64,000 nt of DNA from Candidatus Babeliales bacterium (GTDB taxonomy: Bacteria > Babelota > Babeliae > Babelales > JBFXEV01). The notes below the pieces were generated by a model. The model had not been told where the DNA came from and ran no database searches. It saw nothing but the letters and a program-made list of their open reading frames with translations. Of the stretch, positions 8,236 to 60,278 are shown in pieces. The position numbers and the translations under genes were made by a program. The DNA lies in contig JBFXEV010000001.1 in NCBI GenBank assembly GCA_050179755.1, positions 105,994 to 169,993 of the forward strand. The letters are read 5' to 3'. The stretch's first letter is position 1. Each line of letters begins with the position of its first letter.

Positions 8236-8270
8236 GTCTATAACTAATCTACATGCTATTGGAGGTGGCC

Positions 8271-16676: not shown

Positions 16677-17165
16677 ATGCAGAAAAAATGTATAACTTTT
16701 ACGTTGTTCTTTTTTACGTCTCTTTTAAAAGGTGCAACAGCTGAACCTAAATCAAATAAACTTATAAATGCTCTCACTGCACAACCTACTCAAACAACTA
16801 GTGCTGAAATAAAACCATCTTCACCAAAAAGAACGATCACTATTAAAAATACTATCGAACCAAAAATGCTGACGTATAAACATTGGAGTGGCAATAAAGT
16901 GCCTGATCCTTTTAAAATTGTCATTGATGGCAAAGAAATCGCACCAGGCAAATCAATCACTGTTGCCATAGAAAATGATACGCTACCAGTACAATTTAGT
17001 TATTCATTTATGATGGGTTATAAAAAAGGAACTAATGAGGTCACTTTTCAAGTCCCTGAGCATAAAGATAATCTTAATCTTACTTTTTCATGGGATAATG
17101 ATTACCGCGTAATACTTGAACACGCAAAAGCTATTAAAAAGCAAGCTGTTCTTTCTCAGAGCTAG
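16677..17165 (+). CDS. Exported hypothetical protein
   Basis: Signal peptide, beta-rich mature region. Confidence 0.7.
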   Translation: MQKKCITFTLFFFTSLLKGATAEPKSNKLINALTAQPTQTTSAEIKPSSPKRTITIKNTIEPKMLTYKHWSGNKVPDPFKIVIDGKEIAPGKSITVAIENDTLPVQFSYSFMMGYKKGTNEVTFQVPEHKDNLNLTFSWDNDYRVILEHAKAIKKQAVLSQS

Positions 17166-17922
17166 GGGTAGCTTTAGTTGCTGATGCTCGCAAATGTAAA
17201 AGGCGCTCATTATATTGTTCTGGTGTTAGTGAAGGCGATAAGCGTTGAGATGTTGTCAAATACTCAGCTGCTCTCTCATATTCACCACTTGTTTCTAACA
17301 ATACAGAAGAATTCAAGCACGCGCGCCCTAAAAATTTATTTAAAAATGCACGCTTTCTTTCAACATTAACCTCTTTTTTTGGTAATGCCTTTATTGCTTT
17401 GTCTGCTGTTTCAATAATCCGCTGCCAACAAGCTCGTGCGTTATCCATGTCGCGCAAACAATAATAGGCAACTCCCAAGCCGTTCTGCACATGATAAAAA
17501 TAATTTTCACTTAATCTATGTTCTGAAAATAACAATAACTCTTTTGCGGCCTCATACTGGGCTTCACTCAAGGATATATACCCAAGTTGAAGAGCTGCCC
17601 ATCCGCGAGCAAAAGGCAGCCCTTGTTTGTGGTTATATGCTGCCATATACGCCTCTTTAGCAGGGACAATCCTCTGTTCGTCCCTAAAGACATCTCCTAA
17701 ACGTGCTTGCGAGGCCGACCATAATATAGTACCAGGATTATCCTTTATATATGCCTGCAATTTCTCTCTAAACCTTATGCGTGGTTCACCGTGTGCTTGA
17801 TAATCATACACTAATAATTCGCGTGCAATTCTACCCTGTTCTTGCACTTTTTTTTCTGCTCTATCCATGGAAATAAGGGGAAAAGATGAGTATAAAATAT
17901 ATATAAATATTAGACGCTTCAT
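17134..17922 (-). CDS. Exported TPR-like protein
   Basis: Signal peptide LIS-MD; TPR-like helices (ARLGDVF, LQLGYI, NGLGVAYY..AR..WQR). Confidence 0.65.
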   Translation of the reverse strand: MKRLIFIYILYSSFPLISMDRAEKKVQEQGRIARELLVYDYQAHGEPRIRFREKLQAYIKDNPGTILWSASQARLGDVFRDEQRIVPAKEAYMAAYNHKQGLPFARGWAALQLGYISLSEAQYEAAKELLLFSEHRLSENYFYHVQNGLGVAYYCLRDMDNARACWQRIIETADKAIKALPKKEVNVERKRAFLNKFLGRACLNSSVLLETSGEYERAAEYLTTSQRLSPSLTPEQYNERLLHLRASATKATPSSEKEQLAF

Positions 17923-20785: not shown

Positions 20786-22591
20786 ATGACTCTATTTAGT
20801 TATATAAAAAATCATCTTTCAATCCTGGACGTGGTGCAAGATTTTGTTGCACTCAAAAAAGCAGGCCTCTATTATAAAGGCCAATGCCCTTTTCATAAAG
20901 AGCGCACAGCCTCATTTACCGTTAGCCCACACAAAGAAATTTATTATTGTTTTGGGTGTCATTCGGGTGGTGACGTAATCTCATTTATTAGCACCATTGA
21001 ACGCTGCTCGCAACTTGAAGCTGCTCATTTTGCAATTGATCGCTATAAACTAAACGTGCCCGCAGAACTGCTTGAGCGAAACAAAACTAATACTACAGCC
21101 CACACTGATGAACGCAAACTCTATTGGGCTATTTGCAAACTAGTGGCAAATTGGTGCCATACCAATGCACTGAAAAATCCCGCCGTGTTATCCTATTTAC
21201 GCAGCCGAAATATTTCAGAAAGCAGCACTACTCAATTTACTATTGGCTATTTTCCGTCAGGGGCACATGCCTTACAACCGCTCCTTAAAAAAGCAGCCGA
21301 TGAAAATATATTGCTCACCGATCTTATTTCTGCCAATATTCTTGCACAAGGCAAACAACAGCATATATATTCCCCCTTTGAAGATCGCATCCTGTTCCCT
21401 ATCAAAGATTATATGGGTAACATATGTGGTTTTGGTGGCAGAATATTCAAGAAAGATGATGAACGGCCAAAATATTATAACTCACGTGAGCATACTCATT
21501 TTGATAAAGGCTCACTCCTATTTGGCCTTGATAGCGCAAAAAAACCTATTAGCGACTCTGGCTCAGTGTTTTTAGTGGAGGGTTATACCGATTGCATAGC
21601 AATGGTACAGCATGGCTATCCCAATACGGTGGCAACGCTAGGAACAGCTTGCTCAATGACACAAGTAAAAGTGCTTGCACGCTACGCCCAAACTCTATAT
21701 TTAGTGTATGATGGGGATGCTGCAGGGCAGCAAGCAATGCTGCGCTTAGCGCAAAATTGCTGGCATGCCGATATGGAGCTCATGCAAATACCACTCCCCC
21801 AAGGAATGGATCCTGCAAGCTACCTCAATCAATTCCGCACGCTTGATGCATTATTACCGCAAGCTCAAGATATTTTTAGCTATTACATTAATTCAGTAAC
21901 AGCCAATTTTGCAGGGCAACCGCTACAGCAAAAGATGAAAATAGCCCGAAAATTAATAGGCCTTATTGGGGAACTTAATGACCAGTTAAAGCAAGATATA
22001 TTACTGCAAAAAGCTGCAAAAACTCTCAATATGCCTTTTGAGTCGGTAAAAAATGAGCTTGCGCGTTCTCGAGAACACCCAAAATTGCACGCTGAACCTG
22101 TGTTTCAAGAAGCCGACGAAGCGGTAGCACTAGTGCTTGAGCCCCAAAATAACCAGCCATTGAAAGAAATTCCAGAGTTGGAAAAAAAGTTATTTTCTGT
22201 TATAATAAATAACGTTGATCAATTGCGGGATGAAGAGGTGGCATATCTTACTGCTTATTTAACTGAGCCATTACCCAACTTGCTGAATTTACTTTTGAGC
22301 TGCAAACGTGATAATGAAACCACCTACTTTAATGATTTTTTCTCACGATTAACCGCACAAGAAAAACAGCTTATTAGCCAGCTTACTATTGAATTTCACC
22401 CGTATGAACATCAACATAATTTGCAGCATTTATTTGTACAGTTTCAAAAAAACCATTGGAAAAAGTTTGTCACTGACGTAAAGCACAAGTTAGAAAGCGC
22501 CAATCAACAGAATAACACACAAGAAATTGCAACGATTTTAGCGCGCTTTCAAGCATTGAAAAAAAAGTTACTTCATAAGGGGTTGATATGA
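20786..22591 (+). CDS. dnaG: DNA primase
   Basis: CPFH..CFGC Zn ribbon, GFGGR, PKYYNS, TOPRIM VEGYTD and YDGDAAG. Confidence 0.97.
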
Positions 22592-24609
22592 TTAAAAAAT
22601 TAGTTCAAAAAAAAACGACTACAAAAAAAGCAAGCACGTCTAAAACAACTCCTAAAAAATCTACTCCCGCAAAACGTGTAGCGAAGAAAAAAATCAAAGT
22701 TGAAGCCGCTGAAACAGCTGCGTTAGTTGCCGCCCCTACTGATGAATTAAGCCAAACTATTGTTGATGCCTTTATTGATAAAGCCCAACGCGCTGGCGTT
22801 GTAACATTTGAAGAAGTCAAAGATTTTGTACAGCAATACGGGCTTACCAAAAATGAAACACGCCTTATCATCCGACAGCTTGAAAAAGAAAATATTGAGC
22901 TTATCAACGAAAGCGAACTTGATAGCAGTATTGGCAGTAGCGGCGATGAAGATGCCAGCGCAGGCGCACAAAGCCTAATAGGCTCATTTTCTTCTGAAGA
23001 AGAAGATGAAGAGCTGAGCGAAGATGAAGAAGAAGGGGCAGAAGAAGATGACGATGAATCAATGTTGCGTGTTACTTCTGAATCTTCTGGGCTTGCTGAC
23101 GGCGTAAAAAGCTATTTACGTGATATTGGTAAAATCCCACTTCTTAATAAAAAAACCGAGCAAGTTATTTCAGACAACATAGCAAAAGGTAAATTTAAAA
23201 GTACTCAAGCTATTGCTCTCTTTCCATTAGTGCATAAAGAACTTTTTAGCGTTGCTGAACGGTTGCAAAAAGATCCACTCATTTTAAAGGATGTTATTCA
23301 ATTCTCTGACTTCGATCAGGAAAACCTGCCTAAGCTGGAAGCTGAGCGCGATGCGCTTATTAAAACTATTGCAGTACTTAAAGAACAAACTGGGGAAGTT
23401 GAAAAATTACAACAAGCGCTCAATGAAGCTTCTGATGCCAAATCAAAAAAAGAGCTCACAAAAAAAATAGAAACGCATCAAGCAGAGGTTTTTGCTACTA
23501 TTCAAAGTATTAAATTTGCAAATAAGTTTATTAAAAGAATGGCAAAACGAATCCAAAAAGCGCTCTCAAAACTGCAGGAAAAAGAACAAGAAATTGTTGA
23601 GGTAACCACAGAGTTAAAAAAATTGCAAAAAAGCAAAACTCTTGAAGAACAAGAACAAGAAGCTCTTGAATTTTATGAACGCACATTGCGCATTGCCCAA
23701 AAAACAGTGAGCACTCTTGAAGCAGAAATTGGATTGCCCATTGAGGAAGCCCAAAAACTATTTGCACAACTTCAAGAAGGTATTACCATCGATAAGCTTG
23801 CAAAAGATGACCTGGCCAGAGCAAACTTAAGGCTTGTAGTTAACATTGCCAAAAAGTATGTAAACCGTGGCCTTCACTTTCTTGATTTAATTCAAGAAGG
23901 CAATATTGGGCTTATGAAAGCTGTTGAAAAGTTTGAATTTGAACGTGGGTATAAATTTTCAACGTATGCAACATGGTGGATTAGACAAGCAATCACACGT
24001 GCTATTGCCGATCAGTCACGCACTATCCGTGTGCCAGTTCATATGGTAGAAACACTTAATAAAATTAACAAAATTAAGCGCACCTTTATGCAAGAGCATG
24101 GGCGAGAACCATCTAATCAAGAACTTTCTAAAGAATTAAATCTTGATGAAAAGAAAATAAAGAATATCATTAAGATCTCTAAAGAACCAATTTCACTTGA
24201 AACACCGGTTGGTGATAGCGAAGATGCGTATATTAAAGATTTTATTGAAAATGAAGATGAATACTCACCTGCCGACTCTGTTGCAAGCAACGATTTGAAA
24301 GAACGAGTGCGCGAATTGCTCAAAGGGCTTACCCCACGCGAAGAAAAAGTACTCAAAATGCGTTTTGGTATAGATGTAGCCTCTGAACATACCTTGGAAG
24401 AAGTGGGTAAAGATTTTGGCGTAACACGAGAGCGAATTCGCCAAATTGAAGTAAAAGCTATTCGCAAGTTACGGCATCCATCCAAAAGTGACGGCCTGCG
24501 TGAATTCTTTAATAAAAATGAGCAACCAAATGCTTCTAAAAAAAGCAAAGATGAAGCATACGAAGATAACGATAACGATGATAATTTAGACTCAGATTCT
24601 AGTGATTAA
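22588..24609 (+). CDS. rpoD: Primary sigma70 factor, copy 1
   Basis: Regions 1.2 (YLRDIG), 2 ([29 protein letters not shown]), 3 and 4 ([15 protein letters not shown]); long NCR. Confidence 0.95.
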
Positions 24610-24636: not shown

Positions 24637-26547
24637 ATGCAGAAGAAAAAACTTGAATCAAAAGTAGTAGCAGAAGTAACCGAACTCAGTGCAAACGACC
24701 CTAAAGTAAGTATCATCAACAATTTTGTAGACAAAGCGCAACGCGCTGGCGTTGTGACCTATGAAGAAGTAATTGATTTTGTTAAACAATATGGTTTTAA
24801 CAAAGCCGATACTCGCATTCTTATTAAACAACTTGAAAAAGAAAACATTGAATTAATCATCGAAAGTGAACTTGAAAGTTCTATAGGCAGCAGCAGCGAT
24901 GAAGATGGTAGCCAAGCAGCACAACAAATGTTTGGTGAACTTGATAGCGAAGAAGAAGCCGATGAAGAAGATGGTCTTGATGACGGAGGCGACGACGAAG
25001 AAGATGATGACGACCAATCAATGCTGCGCGTTACTTCTGAATCAAGCGGCCTTGCCGATGGCGTAAAAAGCTACCTGCGCGACATTGGTAAAATTCCACT
25101 TCTCAATAAACAAACTGAAAAAGTTATTGCAGATAATATCATTCGGGGCCGCTTTAAAAGTACTCATGCAATATCATTAATGCCTTTTGTACAAAAAGAA
25201 CTCTATGCTATGGCTGAGCGGCTTGAGAAAGACTCTAATGCACTTAAAGATATTATTCAGTTTTCCGATTTTGACCAAGAAAATTTACCAAAAATTGAGA
25301 GCGAGCGAGATGCGCTTATTGCAACGATTAAATCTATTAAAGATTTAGCTGCCCAAGAAGAAAAAATTTATCATGAATATCGTGGCAAACTTGAAGATCC
25401 TAAGCTCAAAAAGGAAATGCTCCAGCGAGTTCAAGATAATAAAGCTAAAATCAGCGAGACTATTCAAAGTATAAAATTTGCTAATAAATTCATTAAACGC
25501 ATAGCCAAACTTGTTGATCGTATTATCAGTAAGATCAATGAGAAAGAACGTGAAATAGAAGAAGCAAACAAAGAACTTAAAAAATTACAAAAAAATAAAT
25601 TAGGCAGCCCAGAAGAACACACCGAAGCCGTTGAGTTCTATGAACGCATAGTGCGTGCCAACCAAAAAAATATTAAAAATATTGAAGGCGAAGTTGGGTT
25701 ACCATTCAAAGACACGTTGCGGCTTCTTGAACAACTAAAAGAAGGCATTCGTATTGATAAATTAGCCAAGGATGATTTGGCTCGCGCCAATCTAAGGCTT
25801 GTGGTAAATAATGCTAAAAAGTATATCAATCGCGGCCTTCATTTTCTTGATCTTATTCAAGAAGGCAATATTGGCTTAATGAAAGCTGTTGAAAAATTTG
25901 AATTTGAACGAGGTTATAAATTCTCAACTTACGCTTCTTGGTGGATTCGCCAAGCTATTACACGTGCTATAGCCGATCAATCACGCACTATTCGCGTGCC
26001 GGTACATATTGTTGAAACCATCAACAAAATGAACAAAATTAAACGCACGTTTATGCAAGAGCACGGCAGAGAACCTAATAACCAAGAACTTTCAAAAGAA
26101 CTTAATCTTGATGAAAAGAAAATAAAAAGCATTATTAAGATCTCAAAAGAACCTATTTCACTTGAAACACCGGTTGGTGATGGTGAAGATGCGTATATTA
26201 AAGACTTTATTGAAAGCGAAAACGATTTTTCTCCCGCTGAATCAGTTGCAAGTAACGACTTGAAAGAACGTGTACGTGAAGTGCTTAAAGATCTGTCTCC
26301 ACGAGAAGAAAAAGTTCTCAAAATGCGATTTGGCATTGATGTTGCTTCTGAACACACTTTGGAAGAAGTTGGTAAAGATTTTGGTGTTACACGTGAACGA
26401 ATTCGTCAAATTGAAGTCAAAGCAATACGTAAGTTACGCCATCCATCAAAGAGCGATAAATTGCGCTCGTTTTTCCAAAAAGAATATGATACGCTAGCAG
26501 CAGATACTATAATAGCCGATGACATGGAAGCAGATGAACTAGAATAA
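24637..26547 (+). CDS. rpoD: Primary sigma70 factor, copy 2
   Basis: Same complete domain set; [12 protein letters not shown]. Confidence 0.95.
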
Positions 26548-28484: not shown

Positions 28485-28937
28485 ATGAACTACCTATATT
28501 TATTTTCTCTAACAATGCTCATAAATATTAATTGCTTAAGTATGCATCTTGATTTTAGCAACGCTGCCAAGGATATTGGTCAAGATCATGGCAAGTATGA
28601 AGCCAGAAGACTTACAGCACAGAACGTAAATAACACCGATCTTCTAAACCCTCTGTTTGAGCAATTGGATATTGCGGTTAAGTTCAAAAAAGACCACCCC
28701 GAATCCACAAGTCAGTTTAAAGGTTTTATTGTAGGCTTTGGCGCGACGATATTAGCACACAATGCAACTTGCCTAAAAACAAAAAAACCTGTAGTTACTT
28801 TGGATCACGCCATCTTTGAAGGACTTGTGACAAAACGCCAAGACGATGATGTAGCAACCAAAGAAAGTCGTGAAGAGCTTATTAAATTACTCAGGGATAC
28901 TTTAACATCCATGGATCTACTGACTTTAGATAAGTAA
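28485..28937 (+). CDS. Exported hypothetical protein (paralog A)
   Basis: GGAGA SD, signal peptide CLS-M; similar to the next gene. Confidence 0.7.
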   Translation: MNYLYLFSLTMLININCLSMHLDFSNAAKDIGQDHGKYEARRLTAQNVNNTDLLNPLFEQLDIAVKFKKDHPESTSQFKGFIVGFGATILAHNATCLKTKKPVVTLDHAIFEGLVTKRQDDDVATKESREELIKLLRDTLTSMDLLTLDK

Positions 28938-33680: not shown

Positions 33681-34880
33681 ATGAAGAAAAAAGTATTATT
33701 CTTACTGTTATTTACAAGCACTCTAGTAATTTCTTGTTTGTTGCTCAAAACACCTTCCTCGGATCCTTATGCTTCTTTTAGAAAATACCCAGACATTGCT
33801 GAATTTTTAGCAAAATGTGAACAAACGCAAAGTCCAGTGACAAGAAATTGCTCACCAAAAGAAATAAAAAAATACTCAGATTTAGCAAAGGAACTTTTCA
33901 ATTTTCAAGGTATTATGAGTCAATCAGATGGTCATCTACAACAAAATGCCTGTGTTGCATGGGATAATATCATGACTATTGTAGGTAATCCTGCATACAA
34001 AAAGGTTTTTGATAGTGCACTTGCTCACGAACGATATGTTGCTAATGAAAGCGCAGTCTTTTACCATGCACAACAAAACATCTATTATTGGTTAGAACTA
34101 CTTTATACCAAGTTATGGGAACGCAAATATAATCAACCGCTCAGCAATTATTTGTTTTTACGTTTTCCCGATGAACAAAATCAAGATACTATTGTAAAAG
34201 AATTACAGAATGGAGAACAAACAAGAAAACGGTGGCTTGTACAGGGCCGCCAAAAAAATCATACTGCTGAGGATATAAGCCCTATAGTACTTGGTACTAA
34301 CTATGCTCTCTTTGCCAATTCAAAAAACCATTTATGTAGCACGGTTCAATATTTTGTGCATAAGTTTAATGATTTTGATCCAAAAATAACAACTTCTGAT
34401 ATTTTGGCAAAATTCAGCACTCAAGATTTATATCATAGGTATAAGCCATTACTTGATGATATTGAGCATGAATTTAAGAAAGTTGTCCCTCAGAGCGTAT
34501 TATTACAGATCATGATTCCATTTCACTTACTTAAAGAGCATGTCTATCTTTCTACGCAAGGCAGTTGGAAAACAAGTATCTATATACACGATAAGGTAAC
34601 AGATGATGTCTATACTATACTACATACCTTAAAAACTGCCCCTGCAGCATTTCCAGAATCTGATACTCCTGTATTTAGAATAATAGTCACACCAGATTCA
34701 CTTCATATATTGCGTATACAGGGAGCCCACATTCTTATTTATGGCGCTTTTGATAAAGAAAAACTGCAACAGATAATTACTAAACTTGAACAGCTTATTG
34801 AGCGCATAGCTCAAGAAAATCCAGAGCTATTTGAAAACAAAGTTGACCATAAAATTTCTCACTCTTTTTTAGGAGAGTAA
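33681..34880 (+). CDS. Exported or anchored hypothetical protein
   Basis: AAGGAG SD, N-terminal hydrophobic segment, 399-aa ORF. Confidence 0.75.
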   Translation: MKKKVLFLLLFTSTLVISCLLLKTPSSDPYASFRKYPDIAEFLAKCEQTQSPVTRNCSPKEIKKYSDLAKELFNFQGIMSQSDGHLQQNACVAWDNIMTIVGNPAYKKVFDSALAHERYVANESAVFYHAQQNIYYWLELLYTKLWERKYNQPLSNYLFLRFPDEQNQDTIVKELQNGEQTRKRWLVQGRQKNHTAEDISPIVLGTNYALFANSKNHLCSTVQYFVHKFNDFDPKITTSDILAKFSTQDLYHRYKPLLDDIEHEFKKVVPQSVLLQIMIPFHLLKEHVYLSTQGSWKTSIYIHDKVTDDVYTILHTLKTAPAAFPESDTPVFRIIVTPDSLHILRIQGAHILIYGAFDKEKLQQIITKLEQLIERIAQENPELFENKVDHKISHSFLGE

Positions 34881-35527
34881 GCATTAATATAACGCAGAAT
34901 AATAGTTTTTCCTAAAAGGCTTGTAATCAGTGCAGGATTAGCTTGAAAATACTTTTGCCATTCCAGAGAATCTTCTTTTACACAATCTAAAGGAATTTGG
35001 CCCTCATTATCTTGCATCAATAAAACGCGCACAAGGCCTGCTACATGCCATTTCATAAACAAGGAATACGTTTTACCTGGCAGAGAAATTTTACGCACTG
35101 TTTCAATCACCTGCCCGCGCGGCGTGCATAATAAAACAAATAAGGTACTTTTAGCTTGCGTGTCTGCTGCTGCAAGATGATGAAACACCGTTTTGCCACT
35201 TGCATCCCGTTCTTGCAGAGAAGCACCCCCTTGCAAACAATCTACTACACGTTTATCATTACCAGTTAAAACTGCTTGATAAAATGAAACTTCTTGCTCA
35301 TTTTCTGTTGGCCGCACTACAGAAATTGCCAAGCCTTGGGAAAGAGAATCGGCTACTTCACTAAGCTCTTCTACATCATCTTGCAGCAAAGCAGCAGCAC
35401 TTACCTGCTGTCCTGGTAATAAAGACGATTGCAAGCCAACTGAATCCATTGCATATACGTAACAGTTACCTAACCCCAAGAATATTAAAAAAAATACAGC
35501 ACATACAGCTACTCTTGAAAACTTCAT
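34859..35527 (-). CDS. Exported ankyrin-like protein
   Basis: Signal peptide VYA-MD; DASGKTVFHHLA; C-terminus resembles the upstream ankyrin gene. Confidence 0.7.
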   Translation of the reverse strand: MKFSRVAVCAVFFLIFLGLGNCYVYAMDSVGLQSSLLPGQQVSAAALLQDDVEELSEVADSLSQGLAISVVRPTENEQEVSFYQAVLTGNDKRVVDCLQGGASLQERDASGKTVFHHLAAADTQAKSTLFVLLCTPRGQVIETVRKISLPGKTYSLFMKWHVAGLVRVLLMQDNEGQIPLDCVKEDSLEWQKYFQANPALITSLLGKTIILRYINAYSPKKE

Positions 35528-35552: not shown

Positions 35553-36995
35553 TTACTGCTCCTTTACACACTCCAATAATTTTAAATACTTGGCATCTCT
35601 TAGTCGCTGATATGCATCACAAGATAAAGCACGATCTAACTTCATCCCAAAAATAGTATTGCCTTCATTTGTCTCAAGCGCACAGACTTCCCTTAACATT
35701 TTTGTATGGCGACCTATCAACGCTTCCACTATCTTCTGCTGCAAAATTTCTCCCTCATATTGCAATAGCTGTGCAAGTTGTTTAAAACTCAATTGAGTAA
35801 TCATTTCAGCAGTGCTTCGTGTCTTTTGATAGGTACCAAGCGGTAGAGCGCTCATATCGTGTGCAATATACTTTGCTAATAGGGCATGAACCACATTATG
35901 AGGTATTGCTATGTTATGATCTTTACGTAGCTGATACAACCCACAAAGAAACGCAAAGACTCTGCAAGAAACGTCCTTACATGTGATTCCGCCACATTCT
36001 TTTATAGTGCCCATTGGGCATGCAAGAAATTCAAAGAATTTCTCACGCAATATCTCATTTACTTCCCAATTGCGCAATGCAGTATTAAGTATAGAAAGTG
36101 GCGTTGCGTCTTGATCATCCAATATGGTAAGCTTTGCGCCATACAACATTAATTGTTGCCACCTTGCAAAACAGGGAATTTGCCCAACCCAATGCAATGG
36201 TGTAGTGTTTGCAAGATCCTGTACATTCAAACATTCAGTAAGCGTTTTTTCAGCTAATGATCGCTCACTGCGCCATGCCACATGTTTAAGTAATTGGGGC
36301 ATTACAACCTCAAATTTTTCCGAAATAATTGCCCAATGCATAGGAGTACCACCTTGAGTTTTAAAAAACAAATTTACGCCTTGTTTTAAAAATCTTTCTA
36401 TTTCTTGAACTTCTCCTGAACATAAAGCCGATGCAAATGGCGCATAGCAAATATCAAACATGCATGAAGCATTAATATGCTCAGGAAGCTGACCTCTTTG
36501 ATTTTGAATACCAACATTACTGCCACGATCAATAAGCAATCTTGCAACAGGTTTATGATGAAATGCTAGTGCTCGATGCAACGCAGTGCACCCTTCGTCA
36601 TCAAGCGCATCAATAAAGGCACCATGATCAAGAAGAAATGTGGCCACGCTAGATGTATTGTGCAATAGCGCGGTAATATGCAAAGCAGTAAGATCGTTAG
36701 CTGTCGCCGCATCCACTTGAGCTCCATAGTGCAATAAATGCGTAAGCAAATCAAAATTTTGCCTGCCTGTAGCATAATGAAAAGCTGTAGCCTTAAACTC
36801 ATCACGCGCATCAGGGTTTGCCTTTAGCAGAAGGCAAACTTTTGCACGCAATGTATTGCCTTCTTTTGCAGCCTCAATAAGGCCCCGCTCCAAAAATGTT
36901 AATGGCTTAGACGCTACACGATCTGATGATGAATCCATAGGAAGCATCGAACATGCTTTACATAAAGTTACCCATAGCAGTACTTTAAGCTTCAT
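35553..36995 (-). CDS. Exported ankyrin-repeat protein
   Basis: At least 6 ankyrin repeats (TAFHYA, TALHITA, TALHRA, TPMHWA, TPLHWV); signal peptide. Confidence 0.9.
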   Translation of the reverse strand: MKLKVLLWVTLCKACSMLPMDSSSDRVASKPLTFLERGLIEAAKEGNTLRAKVCLLLKANPDARDEFKATAFHYATGRQNFDLLTHLLHYGAQVDAATANDLTALHITALLHNTSSVATFLLDHGAFIDALDDEGCTALHRALAFHHKPVARLLIDRGSNVGIQNQRGQLPEHINASCMFDICYAPFASALCSGEVQEIERFLKQGVNLFFKTQGGTPMHWAIISEKFEVVMPQLLKHVAWRSERSLAEKTLTECLNVQDLANTTPLHWVGQIPCFARWQQLMLYGAKLTILDDQDATPLSILNTALRNWEVNEILREKFFEFLACPMGTIKECGGITCKDVSCRVFAFLCGLYQLRKDHNIAIPHNVVHALLAKYIAHDMSALPLGTYQKTRSTAEMITQLSFKQLAQLLQYEGEILQQKIVEALIGRHTKMLREVCALETNEGNTIFGMKLDRALSCDAYQRLRDAKYLKLLECVKEQ

Positions 36996-48496: not shown

Positions 48497-50788
48497 ATGA
48501 GCAAATATTTCAAACCACAACACATATTACTCGGTCTTATTGCGTCTTTTGCATCAACCATCAAAAGCGAGCACGCATGCGCACCCTTAGTTTGTGCAAG
48601 TGTAGTAAAGGCAGGTAAAGTAATAACTGACCAACTGATTGTCACTAATCCTACCATTGATGGCTGTGCAGTGCATACAATCACTCAGGCTGATTTTTTG
48701 CAAAATGGCACCTTAAGTAAAACCCTAATAATAACTGAACCAGGCTACTATAAATTTTGTGAAAACATAGATTTTGTAGCGCTTACACAATTTGGTGCAG
48801 CGGTTATCATTGACACTGACGATATGGTTCTTGATTTGAATGGAAAGGTATTAAACCAAGCAAATAGTCCTACTATTAGTACTAGAACCTCACACAGAGT
48901 TCCTGGTGTTCCTAGTTCAATTACGGGCATTATAGTCAACACTGGTCATAATAATGTAACAATCCTAGGCAACTATGGAGCAGTAACTAACTTCTCACAA
49001 CGTGGCATTTACGTGCAAGGTGGCAATAATAATATAACTATTGGAAATGACACACAACTGCTTATTACCGGTTGCGGCCATGGCACCCCCGTGAGCTTTG
49101 TTGATCAGACTAATAGTGGCGAGCAAGCAGTATTACAAGCTGGCTTACAAGTAGGAGAAATGCAATTCTTAACACCGTTCGGCTTTGAACCATCAAATGG
49201 TTTACTTAAAGGGCTCTCAGTAAGAAATGTTATTTTATCCGAGAACAATGCAGGATGTGCATTGGGTGATGGTTCAAACTACTTCTTTAACGATTGCACT
49301 ATGTCATTCAATAGAGATACGCGACCAGTATGGCCAACTATCGGATATGGCTATTTTGGTTCAACTTTGGGAGCTGTCGTTTGCTACGGATTGGCTTATT
49401 TTTCTAATCCCGATGGTTTGGGAATTGAAACACTTCAATTTGATAACTGTGACTTCAACTCAAATGTAGCTGATGCATCGATTGATCCTGAAACTTTTTC
49501 TGCGTATTGCGATAGCTTTAACGTTGCCGTCAATTTTTCTAACTTAAAAATATCCAATTGCCGTTTTAATAATAACAATGCAAAATTACAGCAAAGAACG
49601 GATGTTACTCAATTCAATCAAACACGTGGTTGTGTAATCGGGGGTGGCACGGACATACTTCTGCAAGATTCAGAATTCTCAAACAACCTAGGTGGTGGCT
49701 TAGTTGATGGATTAAACATCAGCGGTAAAATTCCTGTAAATAGCACCGCACAAGTCATTTCTCAACCAAAATCATTCACTATTAGAAACTGCATATTCTC
49801 AAACAATAAAGCAAGCACCAATGGTGCCGTTATTGCAAATCCGGGAACTGCTGGATCAGGCAGCCAGGGAGCAATTGGCCAAAAAGCACTTGATGTCGTA
49901 GGTTGCGTTATCAGATTCCCTCATGGCCTTTCTATGATTGATTGTGTAATTGAAGATAACACTGCCGAAATTCTTTCTACAGAAACTGATTACTTAGTAT
50001 ATACTGATGGAATCTTACTATTTGCAGATAATAATTTCCCTGATAGCCCAACAAACAACGTGGAAATTCGTGGCGCTAAAATATCCCGTAACAGAAATAA
50101 TGGGGTACAAGGCACCTCCGCAGGGATAACTACATTAGATGGTCTTTGTGAAAATATTACTATCGTCGATTCGGTAATTACTGAAAACAGCTTCCCTAAT
50201 TATCAACCAAATTTCTTTGCGGCTGGTATTGATATTACTGGGATGACGCGAACACGCCCATCATTAGTATCAGTTATTAATTGTATTATTAATAATCATG
50301 CATCGGCAGGTATCTTCACCTCATTACAACAAACCAATATTCAAGGCAATACCATTTCATTTAATACGTGGGGTGTAATATTAGGCTCATTCCAAGAAGA
50401 AGATGGTGGACCTATCGGTTATCCAATCGGCTCAAGCGTTCTTAATAATACGTTTTTAGGTAATGGCACAGCAGTTGAGGATCAACCAAGCCAAGCACTA
50501 CCACCAGTATATAGCACCTCTCTTGTATCTAACAATCTAGCCTTTAATAATGAGCTAGGATACTTGGTGACCTATGAAGGCGATGTTTCTGTGCCAGTTG
50601 AATTTGGTACATTATCAGCATTTCCACCATACCCGCCATCAGTATTAGCTTCAAACATTGAAATTGTTCCAAATCCTGCAAACCAATTCATTAGTGCAAT
50701 TAGTTCACAAGATGCTTGTAAGGCTAAAAACGAAATTCAAGCATGCACTGGTACAAATAAAACCAAGAAAGCAAGAAGAAGCAAATAA
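48497..50788 (+). CDS. Exported right-handed beta-helix (pectin-lyase-like) repeat protein
   Basis: AGGAG SD; IITEPGYY, LDLNG, recurring NC.FSNN / I.NC repeats; Asn/Gly-rich. Confidence 0.8.
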   Translation: MSKYFKPQHILLGLIASFASTIKSEHACAPLVCASVVKAGKVITDQLIVTNPTIDGCAVHTITQADFLQNGTLSKTLIITEPGYYKFCENIDFVALTQFGAAVIIDTDDMVLDLNGKVLNQANSPTISTRTSHRVPGVPSSITGIIVNTGHNNVTILGNYGAVTNFSQRGIYVQGGNNNITIGNDTQLLITGCGHGTPVSFVDQTNSGEQAVLQAGLQVGEMQFLTPFGFEPSNGLLKGLSVRNVILSENNAGCALGDGSNYFFNDCTMSFNRDTRPVWPTIGYGYFGSTLGAVVCYGLAYFSNPDGLGIETLQFDNCDFNSNVADASIDPETFSAYCDSFNVAVNFSNLKISNCRFNNNNAKLQQRTDVTQFNQTRGCVIGGGTDILLQDSEFSNNLGGGLVDGLNISGKIPVNSTAQVISQPKSFTIRNCIFSNNKASTNGAVIANPGTAGSGSQGAIGQKALDVVGCVIRFPHGLSMIDCVIEDNTAEILSTETDYLVYTDGILLFADNNFPDSPTNNVEIRGAKISRNRNNGVQGTSAGITTLDGLCENITIVDSVITENSFPNYQPNFFAAGIDITGMTRTRPSLVSVINCIINNHASAGIFTSLQQTNIQGNTISFNTWGVILGSFQEEDGGPIGYPIGSSVLNNTFLGNGTAVEDQPSQALPPVYSTSLVSNNLAFNNELGYLVTYEGDVSVPVEFGTLSAFPPYPPSVLASNIEIVPNPANQFISAISSQDACKAKNEIQACTGTNKTKKARRSK

Positions 50789-51194: not shown

Positions 51195-51761
51195 TTATCT
51201 TACAAGCTCATGGCACGGGCAATCAACATTCACAAGATCAACGGCTTTTTGGCCAAACGCATTTTCCATGTGACGATCTGCACCGGCCTTTAATAATCTC
51301 TCCACCACCGCCTGTAATCCAAAATTAGCTGCAAGCATAAGCGCTGATTGGCCACCAATATTTTGCGCATTCACGTTGGCGCCTTTTTCAATTAAAAGGT
51401 AAACCATTTGTTCAACTTGTGCAGCATCTTGATTATTTGCATACGATAATATTGCAGCGATGAGTGGCGTCATTTTTTGACGATCAGCAGCATTAGGATC
51501 AGCTCCTTTTTCAAGAAGTAACACAAAAAGTTCTATATGTGATTGAAGTGCTGCATTAATGAGAGGGGTTTTGCCCCCTACATCAATGCTATTTACCCCA
51601 ACTCCTTGAGATAGAAGTTCTTCAATTTTCTGTACATCACCTTTAAAAGCAGCATGCACAATAGCCGACGACTCATTGATCATCAAATCGCTTCGCTCAT
51701 TAACAGCCCCTGCAGAAGCTGGGATAATAAACCCAAGTAGTACTCCATAATGCTTCTTCAT
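51195..51761 (-). CDS. Exported ankyrin-repeat protein
   Basis: AGGAG SD before MKKHYG; GKTPLINAA, MTPLIAA, GQSALMLAA. Confidence 0.9.
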   Translation of the reverse strand: MKKHYGVLLGFIIPASAGAVNERSDLMINESSAIVHAAFKGDVQKIEELLSQGVGVNSIDVGGKTPLINAALQSHIELFVLLLEKGADPNAADRQKMTPLIAAILSYANNQDAAQVEQMVYLLIEKGANVNAQNIGGQSALMLAANFGLQAVVERLLKAGADRHMENAFGQKAVDLVNVDCPCHELVR

Positions 51762-51943
51762 ATTCACTCCTTTATTTAATGCCAAGCTGAATTGTCATAA
51801 CAAAAAATAATGTAATAACACAACGCATCTTGCCATTTACATATTATCAAATAGTGAAGAGCTATAGCAATATTCCCACATTTTAGATACATTAAAAAGA
51901 GGCGAATGCCAATTTCATAAATTCCTTTTTCAGTCAAAAAATT

Positions 51944-53641
51944 ATGCGCCAAGGATTTTACTTGTTTAATTATTTCTTTTTCTTCTGTAGCATACTCTGC
52001 ACTACCACCAATCTATGGTGCATGCGAACCCAGCCATTTTTTAAAGTTGTTACAACTAATGATGGCAAAGAATATATGGCCCATCCTAAATTATTTGCAG
52101 CTTGTAACTCTGTTGTTCCTATCGACCCTACTGAACATATTTTTCCACTGAAAACGGTTTCAAGTACAGAATGGGAACCATTCGAGGCTTGTTTACAAGC
52201 ATTATTTAAAGAAGAAAGGACTATGCAACCTGCACAACAGCGCTCCTTAGGCGTGATTATAGGAGAGCAAGCTACCAATAAAAAAAGAGCTCGCGATATA
52301 CTTGCAGTAGCGCATTTATTTGGTCATGATCAACTTGTAGATGCCACCATGCAACTATGGGCAGATCGCAATTATGGCATGCCAGAGCAAATTTCTAGTG
52401 ATTCGCTACCGCATGAACTGGTCTACGATTTGCCAGCTGATGCACAAGAAGGGATAGCTCAAAAGGTACTTTATAGTACGCCTTTAGACCAAAAGTTACC
52501 AAAATGGGTAATAAAAATGAACATAAAACCGCGCACCATAAAACTTACACAGAGTTTATGGTCATGCGCAGCAAATAAACATTCTCAAGTTGCTGTAGGC
52601 TGCGTGGATGGTACAATTACCATTCTTGCTGATGAAACTGTTCAACGAAATTTTCCGGCGCATACCAAAGAAGTAAGCGATCTTCACTTTTGCCCCGATG
52701 GCAACTTTTTATTTTCTGCAGCGCAAGACAGCGTAATCAAAGTGTGGAATGCACAACAAGAATTTGCATTCGTTCGTGAATTTCAATTAAACAAACCGAC
52801 ACTTCCTTTTTCTATAGCGCTTAATACTCAAAATACGTTAATTGCAACACCACTTGACCAGGGTATACGCGTATTTGATGCCAACACCGATGATATTAAC
52901 TTTATACTAAATCCAAATAGTAAATCAGCCACCGTTATTTTTGACCAAACAGGTGCGCGCTTGATTGCAGATGCGCAACAAAGTACTATTGCAATTTTCA
53001 ATGTACAAACAGGAATACAGGAAGCAGCACTTGAAATCCAACAAAATATACCTCAGCGATTGCAATGTAATGCGCAAAATTCTTTGCTTGCAGCCGGTAT
53101 GAAATCTGGCCTTATATTTTTATGGAACCTTTCTGATTTTAGCTTACAAGCAACCTTTAATGCGCATGCAAATAAAATTTGGGCGATCGAATTTAGCCCT
53201 TGTAGTAGATTTTTATTCACGGCTTCTACAGATAAAACCGTTAAGATTTGGGATCTAGTCACCGTTAAATGTATAAAAACCTTTAACGTTAACACCGCCG
53301 TACATGATATGCGCCTTACCCCAGATTTAGAACTTATTATAGCGTGCAAAAACCGTGCCCTAAAATTCATTCCCATTAAAGACTTTCTTAAACAATATCA
53401 AAAACACTGCCATTATTTTAAAAACAAGACTACACTTGCACAGGCTCTTTTAATTCAAGAAGCTTTTACCAGAAAACAAGATAACCCGCTTGTGTTGACA
53501 CCCGAAGCTAGAGCAACATTAAGCACATTTGATCCAATTATTAAGGCTTTACTTCAAAAAGAATTACCATTCCAAAAAGCAACAAAGAAAAAAAGGAAAA
53601 CAGAAGATGAAAAAGATGCAGATTACGTTCCAGACAATTAA
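51944..53641 (+). CDS. Exported Skp1/BTB-like + WD40 protein with C-terminal basic NLS-like tail (copy 1)
   Basis: Signal peptide LWC-M; KVVTTNDG, IFPLKTV, ILAVAHLFGHDQLVD; WD40 repeats (AHTKEV..IKVWN, AHANKI..VKIWD); KKKRK. Confidence 0.85.
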   Translation: MRQGFYLFNYFFFFCSILCTTTNLWCMRTQPFFKVVTTNDGKEYMAHPKLFAACNSVVPIDPTEHIFPLKTVSSTEWEPFEACLQALFKEERTMQPAQQRSLGVIIGEQATNKKRARDILAVAHLFGHDQLVDATMQLWADRNYGMPEQISSDSLPHELVYDLPADAQEGIAQKVLYSTPLDQKLPKWVIKMNIKPRTIKLTQSLWSCAANKHSQVAVGCVDGTITILADETVQRNFPAHTKEVSDLHFCPDGNFLFSAAQDSVIKVWNAQQEFAFVREFQLNKPTLPFSIALNTQNTLIATPLDQGIRVFDANTDDINFILNPNSKSATVIFDQTGARLIADAQQSTIAIFNVQTGIQEAALEIQQNIPQRLQCNAQNSLLAAGMKSGLIFLWNLSDFSLQATFNAHANKIWAIEFSPCSRFLFTASTDKTVKIWDLVTVKCIKTFNVNTAVHDMRLTPDLELIIACKNRALKFIPIKDFLKQYQKHCHYFKNKTTLAQALLIQEAFTRKQDNPLVLTPEARATLSTFDPIIKALLQKELPFQKATKKKRKTEDEKDADYVPDN

Positions 53642-55376
53642 ACAAAATCTACTGGGCATACTATTCATCATTTCTTGCACAACAATGCCCTTGCACCAAG
53701 TTGATGGCACAATCACATGCTTTAGTAACGGCAAGCCAGTTTCACACCTTAAAACCACGTTGCAAACAGGACAACAACAAGTCATTGTAAAAACTAAAAT
53801 ATTAATGCCTTGTCTTGCACTAGCAGTACATATTGAAGAAGGGCAGGAGGTCATTCCATTACCCAACATACCACCATTTGAGCTTCTTCATGTAGCAGCA
53901 TGCCTGCAAGCGCATTATGAACTTATGCACGCTCGTTCAAAAGAAGAATATCAAGGAAAACGCCAACAACTTGATGCACAGCTTAATTCAGAAGAAAAAG
54001 TTCACACAGCGCTTATGGCAGCAAATTATTTAGATCATAAAGATCTGCGTGCTCGATGCGCATCCCTTTGGGCCACTAAAAATTACTCGCGCTCATTTAT
54101 GCAAGCTACGCCTGACGAAGTTGAATTTGAAATTGCACAGCGAAAACTTGAACAAACATCACTCCATGACGATATTGCCTATTGGATGGCTCAAAAAACT
54201 TGGATCAACCCCACAAGGACACTTAATCATAAGAACCGGTCAGTTTGGTCACTGGCTTCCAATAGCTCTGGCACGCAAGTTGCCGTTGGCGATTACTTGG
54301 GAAAAATTAGAGTATATGAGCAGGATCAAAAAGAACCTAGTATTAGCATACAAGCACATGCTACTGCCATCACTGATATAGCATTTAACGAAGATGATAC
54401 TTTGGTAGCCACTTGTGCAAGAGATGGCTCACTTCGTTTTTGGGATATTGAAACTAAAGCACAAAAATCGCAACTTGACAGCGACCATCCGCTTGCCCCC
54501 TATGCCTTTAAAACGCATTACAACACAGAGCAAATTGCCTATGATGAAGGATCTAACATTATAGTCGTAAACCCCGCCAATGACACAGAAAAAGTACTTG
54601 AAGGCCATAGTGATTATATTTGCTCTCTTGCTTTTAATAGTGAAGGCACCATGCTTGCATCAGGGGGGGAAGACTGCTCCATAAAACTCTGGGATCTTTC
54701 CACTGGTGCGTGCATGGCAACATTAATTTCTCATACAGAATCGGTGGCTTGCGTACAATTTAGCCCTGATGACAGTTTACTTGCAGCAGGATCTATGGAT
54801 GCTAGTATTTCTCTCTATGATGTTTCAACGCAAGAATTAGTTACAAAACTTGAAGGCCATAAGAACAAAGTTTGGTCGGTAATTATTTCAAACGATAATC
54901 AATTTTTATATTCTGCCTCAGTTGATGGCTCGATTAAAATCTGGCATTTGCCTACTGCGCGCTTGATTAAAAATTTAGTGACTTTTCCACGTACCCAGCT
55001 GCATGCAATGGTTTTGCAACCCAATGGCAGATTAGTTACTGCAGCATTAAATGGAGATATACAATTTTGGGATATCCCTACAATAATCCATCCCATACAA
55101 GCGCTGCAAAAGTATATGCAAAGCGACAGAAGTTTTGATCAAGCCCAATTGATTGTTGATGCTTATGATGCACCTCAAAAAGAGCCTCTTGATTGTTCAA
55201 CAAAGCGTGAACGAGCAAGAGCTTTTGAAACACTTAGACCTGAAATGCAAGACTTACTTATACACAACTTGCATGTAAAGCCCCCAAAGAAAAGAGTAAA
55301 ATCAAGAAAGAAAGGTTCACAAAATAGTTCATCACGCAAACGCGCTACCGCTGATGCAATTGAGCCATTCAAGTAA
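53607..55376 (+). CDS. Exported Skp1-like + 7-bladed WD40 protein with C-terminal NLS-like tail (copy 2)
   Basis: Start 53607 or 53616; IPLPNI and LMAANYLDHKDL..C; seven WD40 repeats; PPKKRVKSRKK...RKR. Confidence 0.88.
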   Translation: MKKMQITFQTIKQNLLGILFIISCTTMPLHQVDGTITCFSNGKPVSHLKTTLQTGQQQVIVKTKILMPCLALAVHIEEGQEVIPLPNIPPFELLHVAACLQAHYELMHARSKEEYQGKRQQLDAQLNSEEKVHTALMAANYLDHKDLRARCASLWATKNYSRSFMQATPDEVEFEIAQRKLEQTSLHDDIAYWMAQKTWINPTRTLNHKNRSVWSLASNSSGTQVAVGDYLGKIRVYEQDQKEPSISIQAHATAITDIAFNEDDTLVATCARDGSLRFWDIETKAQKSQLDSDHPLAPYAFKTHYNTEQIAYDEGSNIIVVNPANDTEKVLEGHSDYICSLAFNSEGTMLASGGEDCSIKLWDLSTGACMATLISHTESVACVQFSPDDSLLAAGSMDASISLYDVSTQELVTKLEGHKNKVWSVIISNDNQFLYSASVDGSIKIWHLPTARLIKNLVTFPRTQLHAMVLQPNGRLVTAALNGDIQFWDIPTIIHPIQALQKYMQSDRSFDQAQLIVDAYDAPQKEPLDCSTKRERARAFETLRPEMQDLLIHNLHVKPPKKRVKSRKKGSQNSSSRKRATADAIEPFK

Positions 55377-56204
55377 TTCTTTGTAACCAAATTTTAAAGC
55401 CCACATATACGCTGTGTGGCCTAAGTTATTTGGCACATCAATCAATTCACTGAATGCCTGTTTATTATTTGTTGCCTCATAGACGTCGTTAAGTAGAGTA
55501 AGTATATATCGTTCTTTATGTTCTAATTGCATATCATAAGGCAATGCACATGAATACATAATAAGGCCATGCACAATCGTATTACCCAGCTGATCACGTA
55601 AACTAAACAATTGTTCTTCTTGCATGTATTTGAGTAGATTACTCACCATGCTGAAACTACCATTCCTTAAATTGCGCCACAGGTTGTGAGGATCTTTAAG
55701 CATTTCATACGTTTCCCATTCATATCCAAGTAATATTTGGCGAAAGGCTTTATCTTCTACGTAATCTCGTGCAGTTTTACCATATATATCTTTTATGCGT
55801 GGATCGGCACCAAACATATAGAGATATGCAGCAATATCCTGATATCCTTTTTGTACTGCATGAGTAAACACTGTTTGCCAATGAACATCTCGGCTAGTAA
55901 CGTAATACTTATCAAAATCTACTTTCTTTAAAATCGTATCAATTGTTTGTTCAATACCTTCTTTTTTTTCTTTTGGAGTATGTGTAGCATCAAGGGTATC
56001 AGCATGGTGCACTGCTGCAATTAACAATGTATATTCATGTTCATCTTTTGCTTTTTTTACATCATAATATTTTGATGCGTTAATAAGTTCACATGCCTCT
56101 TTGTAATGCCCTTCTTGAAAAAGCGTAAACGCCGTATGTACTTCTATTTTTGGGTTCATTATACCAAGGGATACTAAAAGGGAAATTAATAATTCATGCA
56201 ACAT
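55332..56204 (-). CDS. Ankyrin-repeat protein
   Basis: QTVFTHAVQKGY..FGADPRIKDIYGKTA, GNTIVH, GHTAYMWA; AAGGAG SD. Confidence 0.8.
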   Translation of the reverse strand: MLHELLISLLVSLGIMNPKIEVHTAFTLFQEGHYKEACELINASKYYDVKKAKDEHEYTLLIAAVHHADTLDATHTPKEKKEGIEQTIDTILKKVDFDKYYVTSRDVHWQTVFTHAVQKGYQDIAAYLYMFGADPRIKDIYGKTARDYVEDKAFRQILLGYEWETYEMLKDPHNLWRNLRNGSFSMVSNLLKYMQEEQLFSLRDQLGNTIVHGLIMYSCALPYDMQLEHKERYILTLLNDVYEATNNKQAFSELIDVPNNLGHTAYMWALKFGYKELLEWLNCISGSAFA

Positions 56205-59753: not shown

Positions 59754-60278
59754 ATGAAGAAAATACTAACCTGTCTTGCCCTTATTGCAACGCTTAACGT
59801 ACACAATGTATACAGCATGCAGGAAGAAGTTTCTGAATCTACTTTAGCTTTAGCCCAGGCACTCTATACAAAACCATCTGAATCATTCGAACTTATCCAC
59901 GCATTTGTTGCAGCGCGTAGAAGCAATATAGATCACGCAGATGCTTCTACCGGCAATACGTGGTTACATGTAGAAATTATAAATCTTTGTTGGGGGCAGG
60001 CACCCGCTCGTCTTATTACTATCGCAGCACTTCTTGCACATGGTGCTGATCGCACGAGGCAAAACAGCGAAGAATTAACGCCAGCAGCATGTGCCAACGA
60101 TGCACTTTATGAAAGTACATTAGGTACAAGTTCTGTGTTTACCGCTCACGCGCAGGCTGCACTTGATTTACTGCAAGAAGAAAAACCCACTAAGCAAACA
60201 CTCATTAATTTAGCCAAAAAGCACAAACTTACCACATTAATGCCATTGTTAACAGGTCAACATTCTAACTTTGTATAG
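59754..60278 (+). CDS. Exported ankyrin-like protein
   Basis: Signal peptide VYS-MQ; TGNTWLH, LLAHGAD..NSEELTP. Confidence 0.65.
   Translation: MKKILTCLALIATLNVHNVYSMQEEVSESTLALAQALYTKPSESFELIHAFVAARRSNIDHADASTGNTWLHVEIINLCWGQAPARLITIAALLAHGADRTRQNSEELTPAACANDALYESTLGTSSVFTAHAQAALDLLQEEKPTKQTLINLAKKHKLTTLMPLLTGQHSNFV

Follow-up and report, generated by a model that had tools for sequence, protein, structure and literature searches.

Two overlapping genes, ORF1 and ORF2, lie in tandem on the forward strand of a 64,000-nucleotide stretch of DNA (the window) from a Candidatus Babeliales bacterium (GenBank assembly GCA_050179755.1, contig JBFXEV010000001.1, positions 105,994 to 169,993), and each open reading frame (ORF) encodes a single chain in which a domain resembling eukaryotic Skp1 is joined to a WD40 propeller. 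The two proteins share one layout, namely a signal-peptide-like N-terminus, a domain of about 150 residues, a seven-bladed WD40 propeller, four helices and a basic tail (Table 1). A first-pass annotation, made from the letters and the translated reading frames, had described the pair as exported Skp1-like/WD40 fusions. Both reading frames exist as it described them, and a position check found every motif that it quoted in place. Its order of domains stands as well; its size for the N-terminal domain, about 110 residues, does not, because the two helices that follow have to be counted in.

The gene pair and its family

The public prediction for ORF1 (P0002) starts at TTG 51962 and is 559 residues long. 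The longest frame of ORF2 opens at TTG 53529; the ATG at 53607, which agrees with the public prediction (P0001), has the sequence AGGA 10 nucleotides (nt) upstream and places the start of ORF2 within the 3' end of ORF1, with an overlap of 35 nt. An alignment of their products covers 520 residues at 26% identity (E 4e-41). An exhaustive profile search with both N-terminal domains (E<=1e-3) against 1.84 billion representative proteins returned 17 sequences: the two window proteins, 12 proteins of 523-593 residues with the same plan, the fragments P0012 and P0017, and P0016. The last of these (2286 residues, E 4e-4 over six short stretches) was dropped as unrelated, its sole match being to the SMN YG-box model. 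The family therefore comprises 16 sequences, 14 of them full-length; their N-terminal parts form alignment A2, and alignment A4, also of 16 sequences, was used for modelling and for mapping domain limits. In a tree of the 14 full-length members, from which the two fragments were excluded, ORF2 groups with P0008 and P0013 (support 94/91; clade B) whereas ORF1 belongs to another clade, together with P0003, P0004 and P0006 (support 100/99; clade A), and the duplication is therefore old.

The N-terminal domain is of the Skp1 type

The identity of the N-terminal domain emerges at the level of the family. When the profile of the 16 N-terminal domains was compared with the sequences of the PDB, Skp1 chains were matched with E-values from 1.9e-9 (6v88_A) to about 1e-5, plant SKP1-like proteins lying at 3e-9 to 5e-8 and human and yeast Skp1 near 1e-5. 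Elongin C followed at about 1e-3 to 8e-3, and the best BTB zinc-finger chain reached only 1.4. In these alignments, which stop at helix A5, the I-P-L-P-N-I and A-A-N-Y-L-D segments of the family fall on the same motifs of Skp1. Among Pfam families, Skp1_POZ (PF03931) was matched by four of the 16 members (best E 1.4e-5) and BTB (PF00651) by three at E<=1, the best at 0.015, which is under any curated cut-off, and neither window copy among them; Skp1 (PF01466) was matched by none of the 16 at E<=1. Structural comparison points the same way, as SKP1-like clusters are the best neighbours in the ESM Atlas, with template modelling (TM) scores of 0.60/0.62 for ORF2 and 0.55/0.68 for the SKP1-like 1A match of ORF1. 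Judged by profile comparison, the N-terminal domain is homologous to Skp1 and nearer to it than to Elongin C or to ordinary BTB domains, a likeness that goes beyond chance but is visible at family level only. The Skp1-type POZ identity that had been assigned to the two N-terminal domains thus receives support from the family profile, from Skp1_POZ matches, from the Atlas and from the predicted structure described below. Single-sequence matches in Pfam and the PDB to ULD_2, DUF4937, CCDC39 and aspartate-semialdehyde dehydrogenase were at chance level and were set aside.

Other search routes returned little. A word-indexed homology search with residues 30-200 of ORF2 matched only ORF2 itself, and a word-indexed search with the A2 profile recovered P0001, P0002 and P0015 alone in its 'longer' setting and, in its 'near' setting, none of 1331 candidates at E<=1e-3, so that neither a free-standing bacterial Skp1-like protein nor a eukaryotic Skp1 was found by that route. 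A pattern search of representative genomes with a five-sequence alignment gave eight pattern matches, none of which was confirmed, although ORF2 itself fits the pattern; neither the family nor the genome of the window itself was found there.

Predicted fold and the helices before the propeller

An AlphaFold2 model of ORF2 built with A4 had a mean predicted local distance difference test score (pLDDT) of 86.7 and a predicted TM score of 0.78; a model from the single sequence (pLDDT 38.7) was unusable. After a low-confidence N-terminus, the model shows strands at residues 49-54 and 57-62, helices at 63-66 and 70-77, and a strand at 82-84 that carries PLPN, which is strand B3. Helices at 90-107, 112-125, 129-141 (with A-N-Y-L) and 145-158 follow, then a six-residue helix, and two helices at 170-182 and 186-197 close the domain. 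The 28 strands of the propeller begin at residue 202, about five residues after the last of these helices. According to Stogios et al. 2005 (PMC1257465), Skp1 consists of the core BTB fold, B1-B3 and A1-A5, with a family-specific alpha4 and the C-terminal helices alpha7/alpha8, which form the surface that binds the F-box. In the model of ORF2, the number and the order of the predicted elements agree with a complete Skp1, an alpha4-type helix included.

The first-pass annotation had held that the likeness to Skp1 ends before the F-box-binding helices and gives way to an F-box-like stretch, ATPDEVEFEIAQRKL in ORF2 and DLPADAQEGIAQKVL in ORF1. In the model these stretches correspond to the first of the two terminal helices, and the Atlas alignments to a 163-residue SKP1-like cluster run on to residue 179 in ORF2 and 194 in ORF1. 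F-box families were matched by none of the 16 N-terminal domains (E<=1), F-box models by neither of two linker-only queries (E<=10), and F-box proteins were absent from the 60 PDB sequences that the profile of the 16 domains matched at E<=10. In Fbw7, Cdc4 and beta-TrCP, a helical linker joins the F-box to the propeller. The ORF2 model has no such linker before its propeller, and the gap of about five residues therefore leaves no space for an F-box and a linker. The stretch after A5 is thus probably better understood, as far as the model goes, as Skp1's own terminal helices alpha7/alpha8, diverged past recognition by sequence: F-box matches are nil, there is no space for three more helices and a linker, and the Atlas alignments reach residues 179 and 194. 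The F-box part of the earlier description is accordingly not supported, and two predicted helices stand at the alpha7/alpha8 position.

Cullin-contact motifs

The two proteins differ at the surface by which Skp1 meets its cullin. The PxPN motif of strand B3 is described as distinctive of Skp1 and as taking part in the interaction with Cul1 (PMC1257465). ORF2 has kept it, together with the N-Y pair in helix A4; ORF1 has H-L in place of N-Y, as had been pointed out, and FPLKTV in place of PxPN, so that the second motif is lost as well. Across the family, P-x-P and N-Y are each present in 10 of the 16 members, and the clade mates of ORF1 mostly retain both. As both Skp1 signature motifs are lost from its sequence, ORF1 may bind a different cullin or function independently of cullins.

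The propeller and the C-terminal helices

Pfam WD40 was matched by both proteins (E 1.2e-26 for ORF1 and 2.7e-51 for ORF2), and with the model this bears out the proposed single-chain fusion of a Skp1-type domain to a WD40 propeller. In Foldseek comparisons with the PDB, the ORF2 propeller was closest to PkwA of an actinomycete (5yzv; TM 0.92, root-mean-square deviation (rmsd) 1.8), followed by WDR61 and WDR5, and the whole ORF2 model retrieved WD40 propellers alone among the 50 matches listed. A whole-length profile likewise retrieved generic WD40 proteins from the PDB, and FBXW proteins were absent from the 60 best matches listed. The propeller is followed in both proteins by a conserved helical region that matched no Pfam family.

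Signal-peptide-like N-termini and basic tails

By a hydropathy heuristic, both copies and 13 of the 16 family members in all have a hydrophobic N-terminus with a basic start and, in most, small residues before a conserved Met, and in this sense the N-termini are signal-peptide-like, as had been suggested. The arrangement of a small residue, Met and a polar or charged residue after a hydrophobic N-terminus recurs in many putative secreted proteins of the window, among them ankyrin, tetratricopeptide repeat (TPR) and WD40 proteins and proteins of no assigned kind (Table 1), and in the relatives P0003, P0006-P0011, P0013, P0014 and P0017; in the Skp1/WD40 family the Met is a conserved column. P0004, P0005 and P0015 have no hydrophobic N-terminal segment, and P0004 starts at the conserved Met. 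This Met could belong to a motif for cleavage or sorting that is peculiar to the lineage, or serve as a second initiation codon for a form without the signal peptide.

At the other end, the two tails carry clusters that fit K-K/R-x-K/R, the consensus of the classical monopartite nuclear localisation signal (NLS), in a region that the ORF2 model predicts to be disordered, and the NLS-like character ascribed to them agrees with this pattern. Statistics were taken over the last 45 residues of window ORFs of at least 150 residues (n=52). At least four consecutive K/R residues occurred in one of the 52, which is ORF1, and K[KR]x[KR] occurred in five of the 52, the pair included (3/50 of the others), and in eight of the 14 full-length family members. 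Composition does not account for the basic tails. The tails of clade A (ORF1, P0003, P0004 and P0006) continue beyond the KKKRK cluster with Thr and a run of acidic residues and end in a conserved D-[YF]-x-P-[ED] (53585-53641 in ORF1), which looks like a separate short linear motif.

The organism and the neighbourhood of the pair

The source organism is a bacterium of the Babeliales (Dependentiae), a phylum of protist parasites with many eukaryote-like repeat proteins (PMC4776705), whose effectors typically bear Sec signal peptides. In a comparison that returned 69 loci, the MnmG of the window was 88% identical to that of a Candidatus Babeliales metagenome-assembled genome (MAG), 57-65% identical to that of other MAGs, several of them labelled Dependentiae or TM6, and no more than 53% identical to any remaining match, which places the organism in the Dependentiae. 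In Chromulinavorax, a cultured parasite of the Babeliales whose cell lies free in the host cytoplasm, signal peptides are reported on 44% of coding sequences and on 78% of ankyrin proteins (PMC6561590). The window, with a G+C content of about 39%, carries tgt, mraY, mnmG, dnaG, two rpoD, tkt, zwf, gnd, pgi, rseP and nrdAB, and four ankyrin-repeat genes, two of which flank the pair. Promoter-like and terminator-like sites near the pair were no commoner than in shuffled sequence, and the window holds no tRNA genes.

Further features of the window deserve mention in their own right. The two genes for RpoD-type sigma-70 factors are full-length and in tandem (22588-24609 and 24637-26547; NCBIfam PRK05658, E 3e-164 and 9e-160), an uncommon arrangement in a genome of about 1.5 Mb. 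Weak Peptidase_M48 matches were given by three paralogues in tandem, each of about 281 residues (8253-9098, 9113-9961 and 9969-10811); a fourth M48-like gene lies nearby on the reverse strand (7341-8072), and all four products have hydrophobic N-terminal segments. Just upstream of the pair, 48497-50788 encodes a protein of 763 residues with no Pfam or NCBIfam match, a signal-peptide-like start, repeats rich in N, G, S and T, and a basic C-terminus (five K/R in seven residues); it may be a surface or secreted protein of the beta-helix type.

Table 1. Features of the ORF1/ORF2 locus and related features of the window (positions in the window)
Feature	Position	Strand	Remarks
ORF1	51944..53641	+	565 aa; Skp1-like/WD40 fusion; clade A paralogue
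ORF1 signal-peptide-like hydrophobic N-terminus	51944..52021	+	Met-Arg-Thr follows; hydropathy heuristic, KD10 2.3
ORF1 Skp1-like POZ domain	52037..52519	+	residues 32-192; mapped from the ORF2 model via A4
ORF1 KVVTTNDG	52043-52066	+	position check
ORF1 IFPLKTV	52139-52159	+	degenerate PxPN: P-L-K-T
ORF1 ILAVAHLFGHDQL	52298-52336	+	position check
ORF1 DLPADAQEGIAQKVL	52427-52471	+	F-box-like stretch of the first-pass annotation
ORF1 WD40 propeller	52529..53371	+	Pfam; limits mapped from alignment
ORF1 conserved C-terminal helical region	53378..53566	+	alignment A4
ORF1 KKKRK cluster	53585..53599	+	acidic stretch and D-Y-V-P-D end after it
ORF2	53607..55376	+	589 aa from ATG 53607 (= P0001); Skp1-like/WD40 fusion; clade B paralogue
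ORF2 signal-peptide-like N-terminus	53607..53687	+	KD10 2.9; low-confidence helix 2-23 in model
ORF2 Skp1-like domain	53742..54197	+	residues 46-197; profile, model, Atlas match
ORF2 IPLPNI (strand B3)	53853-53870	+	PxPN intact
ORF2 AANYLD (helix A4)	54018-54035	+	N-Y kept
ORF2 ATPDEVEFEIAQRKL	54105-54149	+	F-box-like stretch of the first-pass annotation
ORF2 seven-bladed WD40 propeller	54210..55070	+	28 strands, residues 202-488
ORF2 conserved C-terminal four-helix region	55077..55271	+	residues 491-555, pLDDT about 88-93
ORF2 PPKKRVKSRKK cluster	55281..55313	+	further RKR downstream; tail disordered in model
Ankyrin-repeat protein, signal-peptide-like N-terminus	51195..51785	-	flanks the pair; effector-rich neighbourhood
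Ankyrin-repeat protein, convergent with ORF2	55332..56204	-	3' ends overlap by 45 nt (55332-55376)
Window ORFs with the post-hydrophobic Met pattern	2867-4930; 17134-17922(-); 28485-28937; 34859-35527(-); 35553-36995(-); 59754-60278; ORF1/ORF2		

Discussion

We propose that ORF1 and ORF2 encode host-directed effectors of this obligate intracellular Babeliales bacterium, acting as secreted single-chain mimics of the adaptor and the substrate receptor of a cullin-RING ligase, and we consider this proposal about evenly balanced between right and wrong. The pair is probably a tool that redirects the protein-degradation machinery of the host. The base of the proposed mechanism is the Skp1-type POZ domain, diverged and apparently complete, followed with almost no linker by the seven-bladed propeller. 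A Sec signal peptide would export the proteins from the bacterial cytoplasm, and after crossing the outer membrane they would reach the cytoplasm of the host. There, the Skp1-like domain would dock on the N-terminal repeat of a host cullin, for ORF2 presumably one of the Cul1 type because PxPN and N-Y are kept, and the propeller would recruit host proteins for ubiquitination. The K/R cluster of the disordered tail may direct a fraction of the protein into the nucleus of the host. An F-box would not be involved, as the propeller would occupy the place of the F-box protein on Skp1.

Several points weigh against this proposal. The step across the outer membrane is unexplained, and the hydropathy test passed by the two N-termini is passed by 35 of the 52 window ORFs and failed, for want of such a segment, by three of the 16 family members. 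Taken alone, the N-terminal domain of neither window copy matched Skp1 or BTB in Pfam or Skp1 in the PDB. Only three of the 16 members have strict PxPN, and both PxPN and N-Y are missing from ORF1. The contact of the N-Y pair of Skp1 with Cul1 is as reported by Zheng et al. in 2002. The propeller is generic and gives no clue to the target, and an NLS-like cluster is absent from six of the 14 full-length members.

The closest whole-length structural neighbours of ORF2 among viral proteins bring another possible cullin into view. In a Foldseek search of BFVD, the top whole-length matches were BTB/POZ and WD-repeat proteins of giant viruses (E 2e-19 to 1e-13 over 470-545 columns), such as R739, R731 and R786 of Mimivirus and those of Megavirus and Moumouvirus. 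These share the two-domain plan, a length of about 470-520 residues and a parasitic life in amoebae. Their identity to the ORF2 protein is only 10-14%, however, with TM scores of 0.32-0.41 and a large rmsd, so that on structural matches alone only a common plan is indicated; they are also annotated as generic BTB rather than Skp1-type proteins, and a signal peptide is not expected in a viral protein. Their function is, to our knowledge, uncharacterised. Such neighbours would suit an adaptor that dimerises and binds Cul3, like BTB-Kelch, MATH-BTB and giant-virus BTB-WD proteins. Many BTB-BACK-Kelch clusters appear in the Atlas at TM 0.50-0.55 for residues 30-200, by features ORF1 is best matched by a BTB/POZ cluster (0.83), which can serve only as a lead, and adaptor and receptor in one chain is the Cul3 design (PMC1257465). 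We nevertheless regard a Cul3-type adaptor as unlikely, since the E-value of the profile is about nine orders of magnitude lower for Skp1 than for any BTB zinc-finger chain, the Skp1-specific PxPN and the extra alpha4-type helix are present, and the N-terminal extension used in BTB dimerisation is not evident, residues 19-40 being of low confidence in the model.

The terminal helices raise a different prospect, that the proteins are Skp1 decoys which trap host F-box proteins by their last two helices, or cap Cul1, and so inhibit or rewire the host's Skp1-cullin-F-box (SCF) ligases, with the propeller and the tail serving localisation. The full set of Skp1 helices predicted by the model, with two at the alpha7/alpha8 position that forms the F-box binding surface of Skp1 (PMC1257465), would equip them for this. 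The groove for the F-box may be occupied, though, because the last helix meets the propeller after about five residues and because the model, with high confidence, packs the four conserved C-terminal helices against some part of the protein; the profile alignments, moreover, stop at A5 and Pfam Skp1 is matched by no member, and we think a decoy improbable.

Still less can be said for the arrangement of the first-pass annotation, a Skp1 truncated before the F-box-binding helices, followed by a folded-back degenerate F-box and the propeller, in effect a covalent pairing of Skp1 with an F-box-WD40 protein, which we hold to be doubtful indeed. By eye, the consensus after A5, LPxExxxxIAxKM...L....PxW, does resemble the start of an F-box; every F-box search reported above was negative, the model has two long helices where alpha7/alpha8 and three F-box helices would be needed, there is no helical linker, and the WD40 domain is not specifically FBXW-like. 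That the proteins have no role in the host and are periplasmic or envelope WD40 scaffolds, with a POZ-like oligomerisation domain that resembles Skp1, is very unlikely: a Sec-type N-terminus by itself delivers to the periplasm only, hydrophobic N-termini are found on most window ORFs, and bacterial WD40 proteins exist, PkwA being the best PDB match, but homology to Skp1 and Elongin C with a conserved Cul1-contact motif has no known use without cullins, the basic tail pattern is family-specific, and the lineage is one of obligate parasites rich in eukaryote-like repeat proteins.

Returning to the effector proposal, it can be stated in a bolder form, which we offer tentatively and would not ourselves expect to hold in full. 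The proteins would be F-box-less, self-contained SCF-type receptors and the first bacterial homologues of Skp1, each uniting a complete Skp1 with a WD40 propeller in one chain, exported through a Sec signal peptide and carried into the host nucleus by a classical NLS. They would form two ancient lineages of paralogues, one keeping the Cul1-contact motifs and the other having switched cullin or become independent of cullins, and the BTB/WD proteins of the giant viruses of amoebae would represent the same invention, made independently or acquired by exchange.

The comparison with eukaryotic Skp1 shows how much of it has been kept. The POZ domain is homologous, the predicted elements follow in the same order with an alpha4-type helix and two terminal helices, and ORF2 has PxPN in B3 and A-N-Y-L in A4 as the aligned Skp1 chains do. 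Skp1, however, is a free-standing protein of about 160 residues that needs a separate F-box protein (PMC1257465), whereas in the window proteins the receptor is part of the same chain. They are, moreover, bacterial, have a signal-peptide-like N-terminus and C-terminal helices without detectable sequence similarity, and in the case of ORF1 lack both motifs.

Single-chain adaptors of related design have been described in other parasites. Protochlamydia encodes 73 proteins that combine BTB with leucine-rich repeats (LRR), and the Parachlamydiaceae were then the sole prokaryotes known to have BTB domains; the same text notes that F-box and BTB proteins are numerous in the giant viruses that infect amoebae (Domman et al. 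2014, PMC4209131). The BTB-LRR proteins of the PEX1 family of Protochlamydia resemble the pair in that they are bacterial and amoeba-associated, have an N-terminal BTB fold and C-terminal repeats in one chain, have expanded by duplication that includes tandem copies, and have been proposed to hijack host cullin ligases (PMC4209131). They differ in having LRR rather than WD40, a generic BTB domain and type III rather than Sec secretion signals, and in belonging to another phylum. Vaccinia A55, a BTB-Kelch protein, binds Cul3 directly (PMC6484134); it is a single-chain adaptor and propeller that a pathogen places on a host cullin, and its complex is the only solved cullin complex of this design that we found in the literature. 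Unlike the window proteins, it has Kelch rather than WD40 repeats and BTB-BACK rather than a Skp1-type domain, and it is dimeric and viral. Legionella AnkB and other bacterial F-box effectors share the SCF target and the amoebal setting (PMC2790608, PMC4209131), but bring an F-box only and rely on the Skp1 of the host, whereas the window proteins bring a Skp1-like part and no detectable F-box. Both window proteins unite a BTB-type fold and a repeat domain in one chain, as WD40 matches in Pfam, the Skp1 profile and the model indicate. The idea of a one-chain adaptor and receptor in a parasite is not in itself new, because BTB-LRR proteins are known from amoeba-associated chlamydiae and BTB-repeat proteins from giant viruses and poxviruses. 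We found no published account of a Skp1-type domain in a bacterium, nor of proteins of this kind in Dependentiae, a weak negative drawn mostly from open literature without supplements.

The routes by which pathogens are known to enter these ligases are the F-box, which needs host Skp1, and the BTB-repeat protein on Cul3. If our proposal is true, a bacterial Skp1 module fused to its receptor would open a third way into SCF-type ligases, one that circumvents the host's own Skp1 as well as the regulated exchange by which F-box proteins replace one another. The plan that the pair shares with the BTB/WD proteins of the Mimiviridae bears on whether amoeba parasites have shared genes or converged. 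Because PxPN and N-Y are present in ORF2 and both absent from ORF1, the pair is also a natural experiment on which residues of Skp1 select the cullin. For the Dependentiae, a large and almost uncultured phylum, this would be the first effector family with a concrete and testable target.

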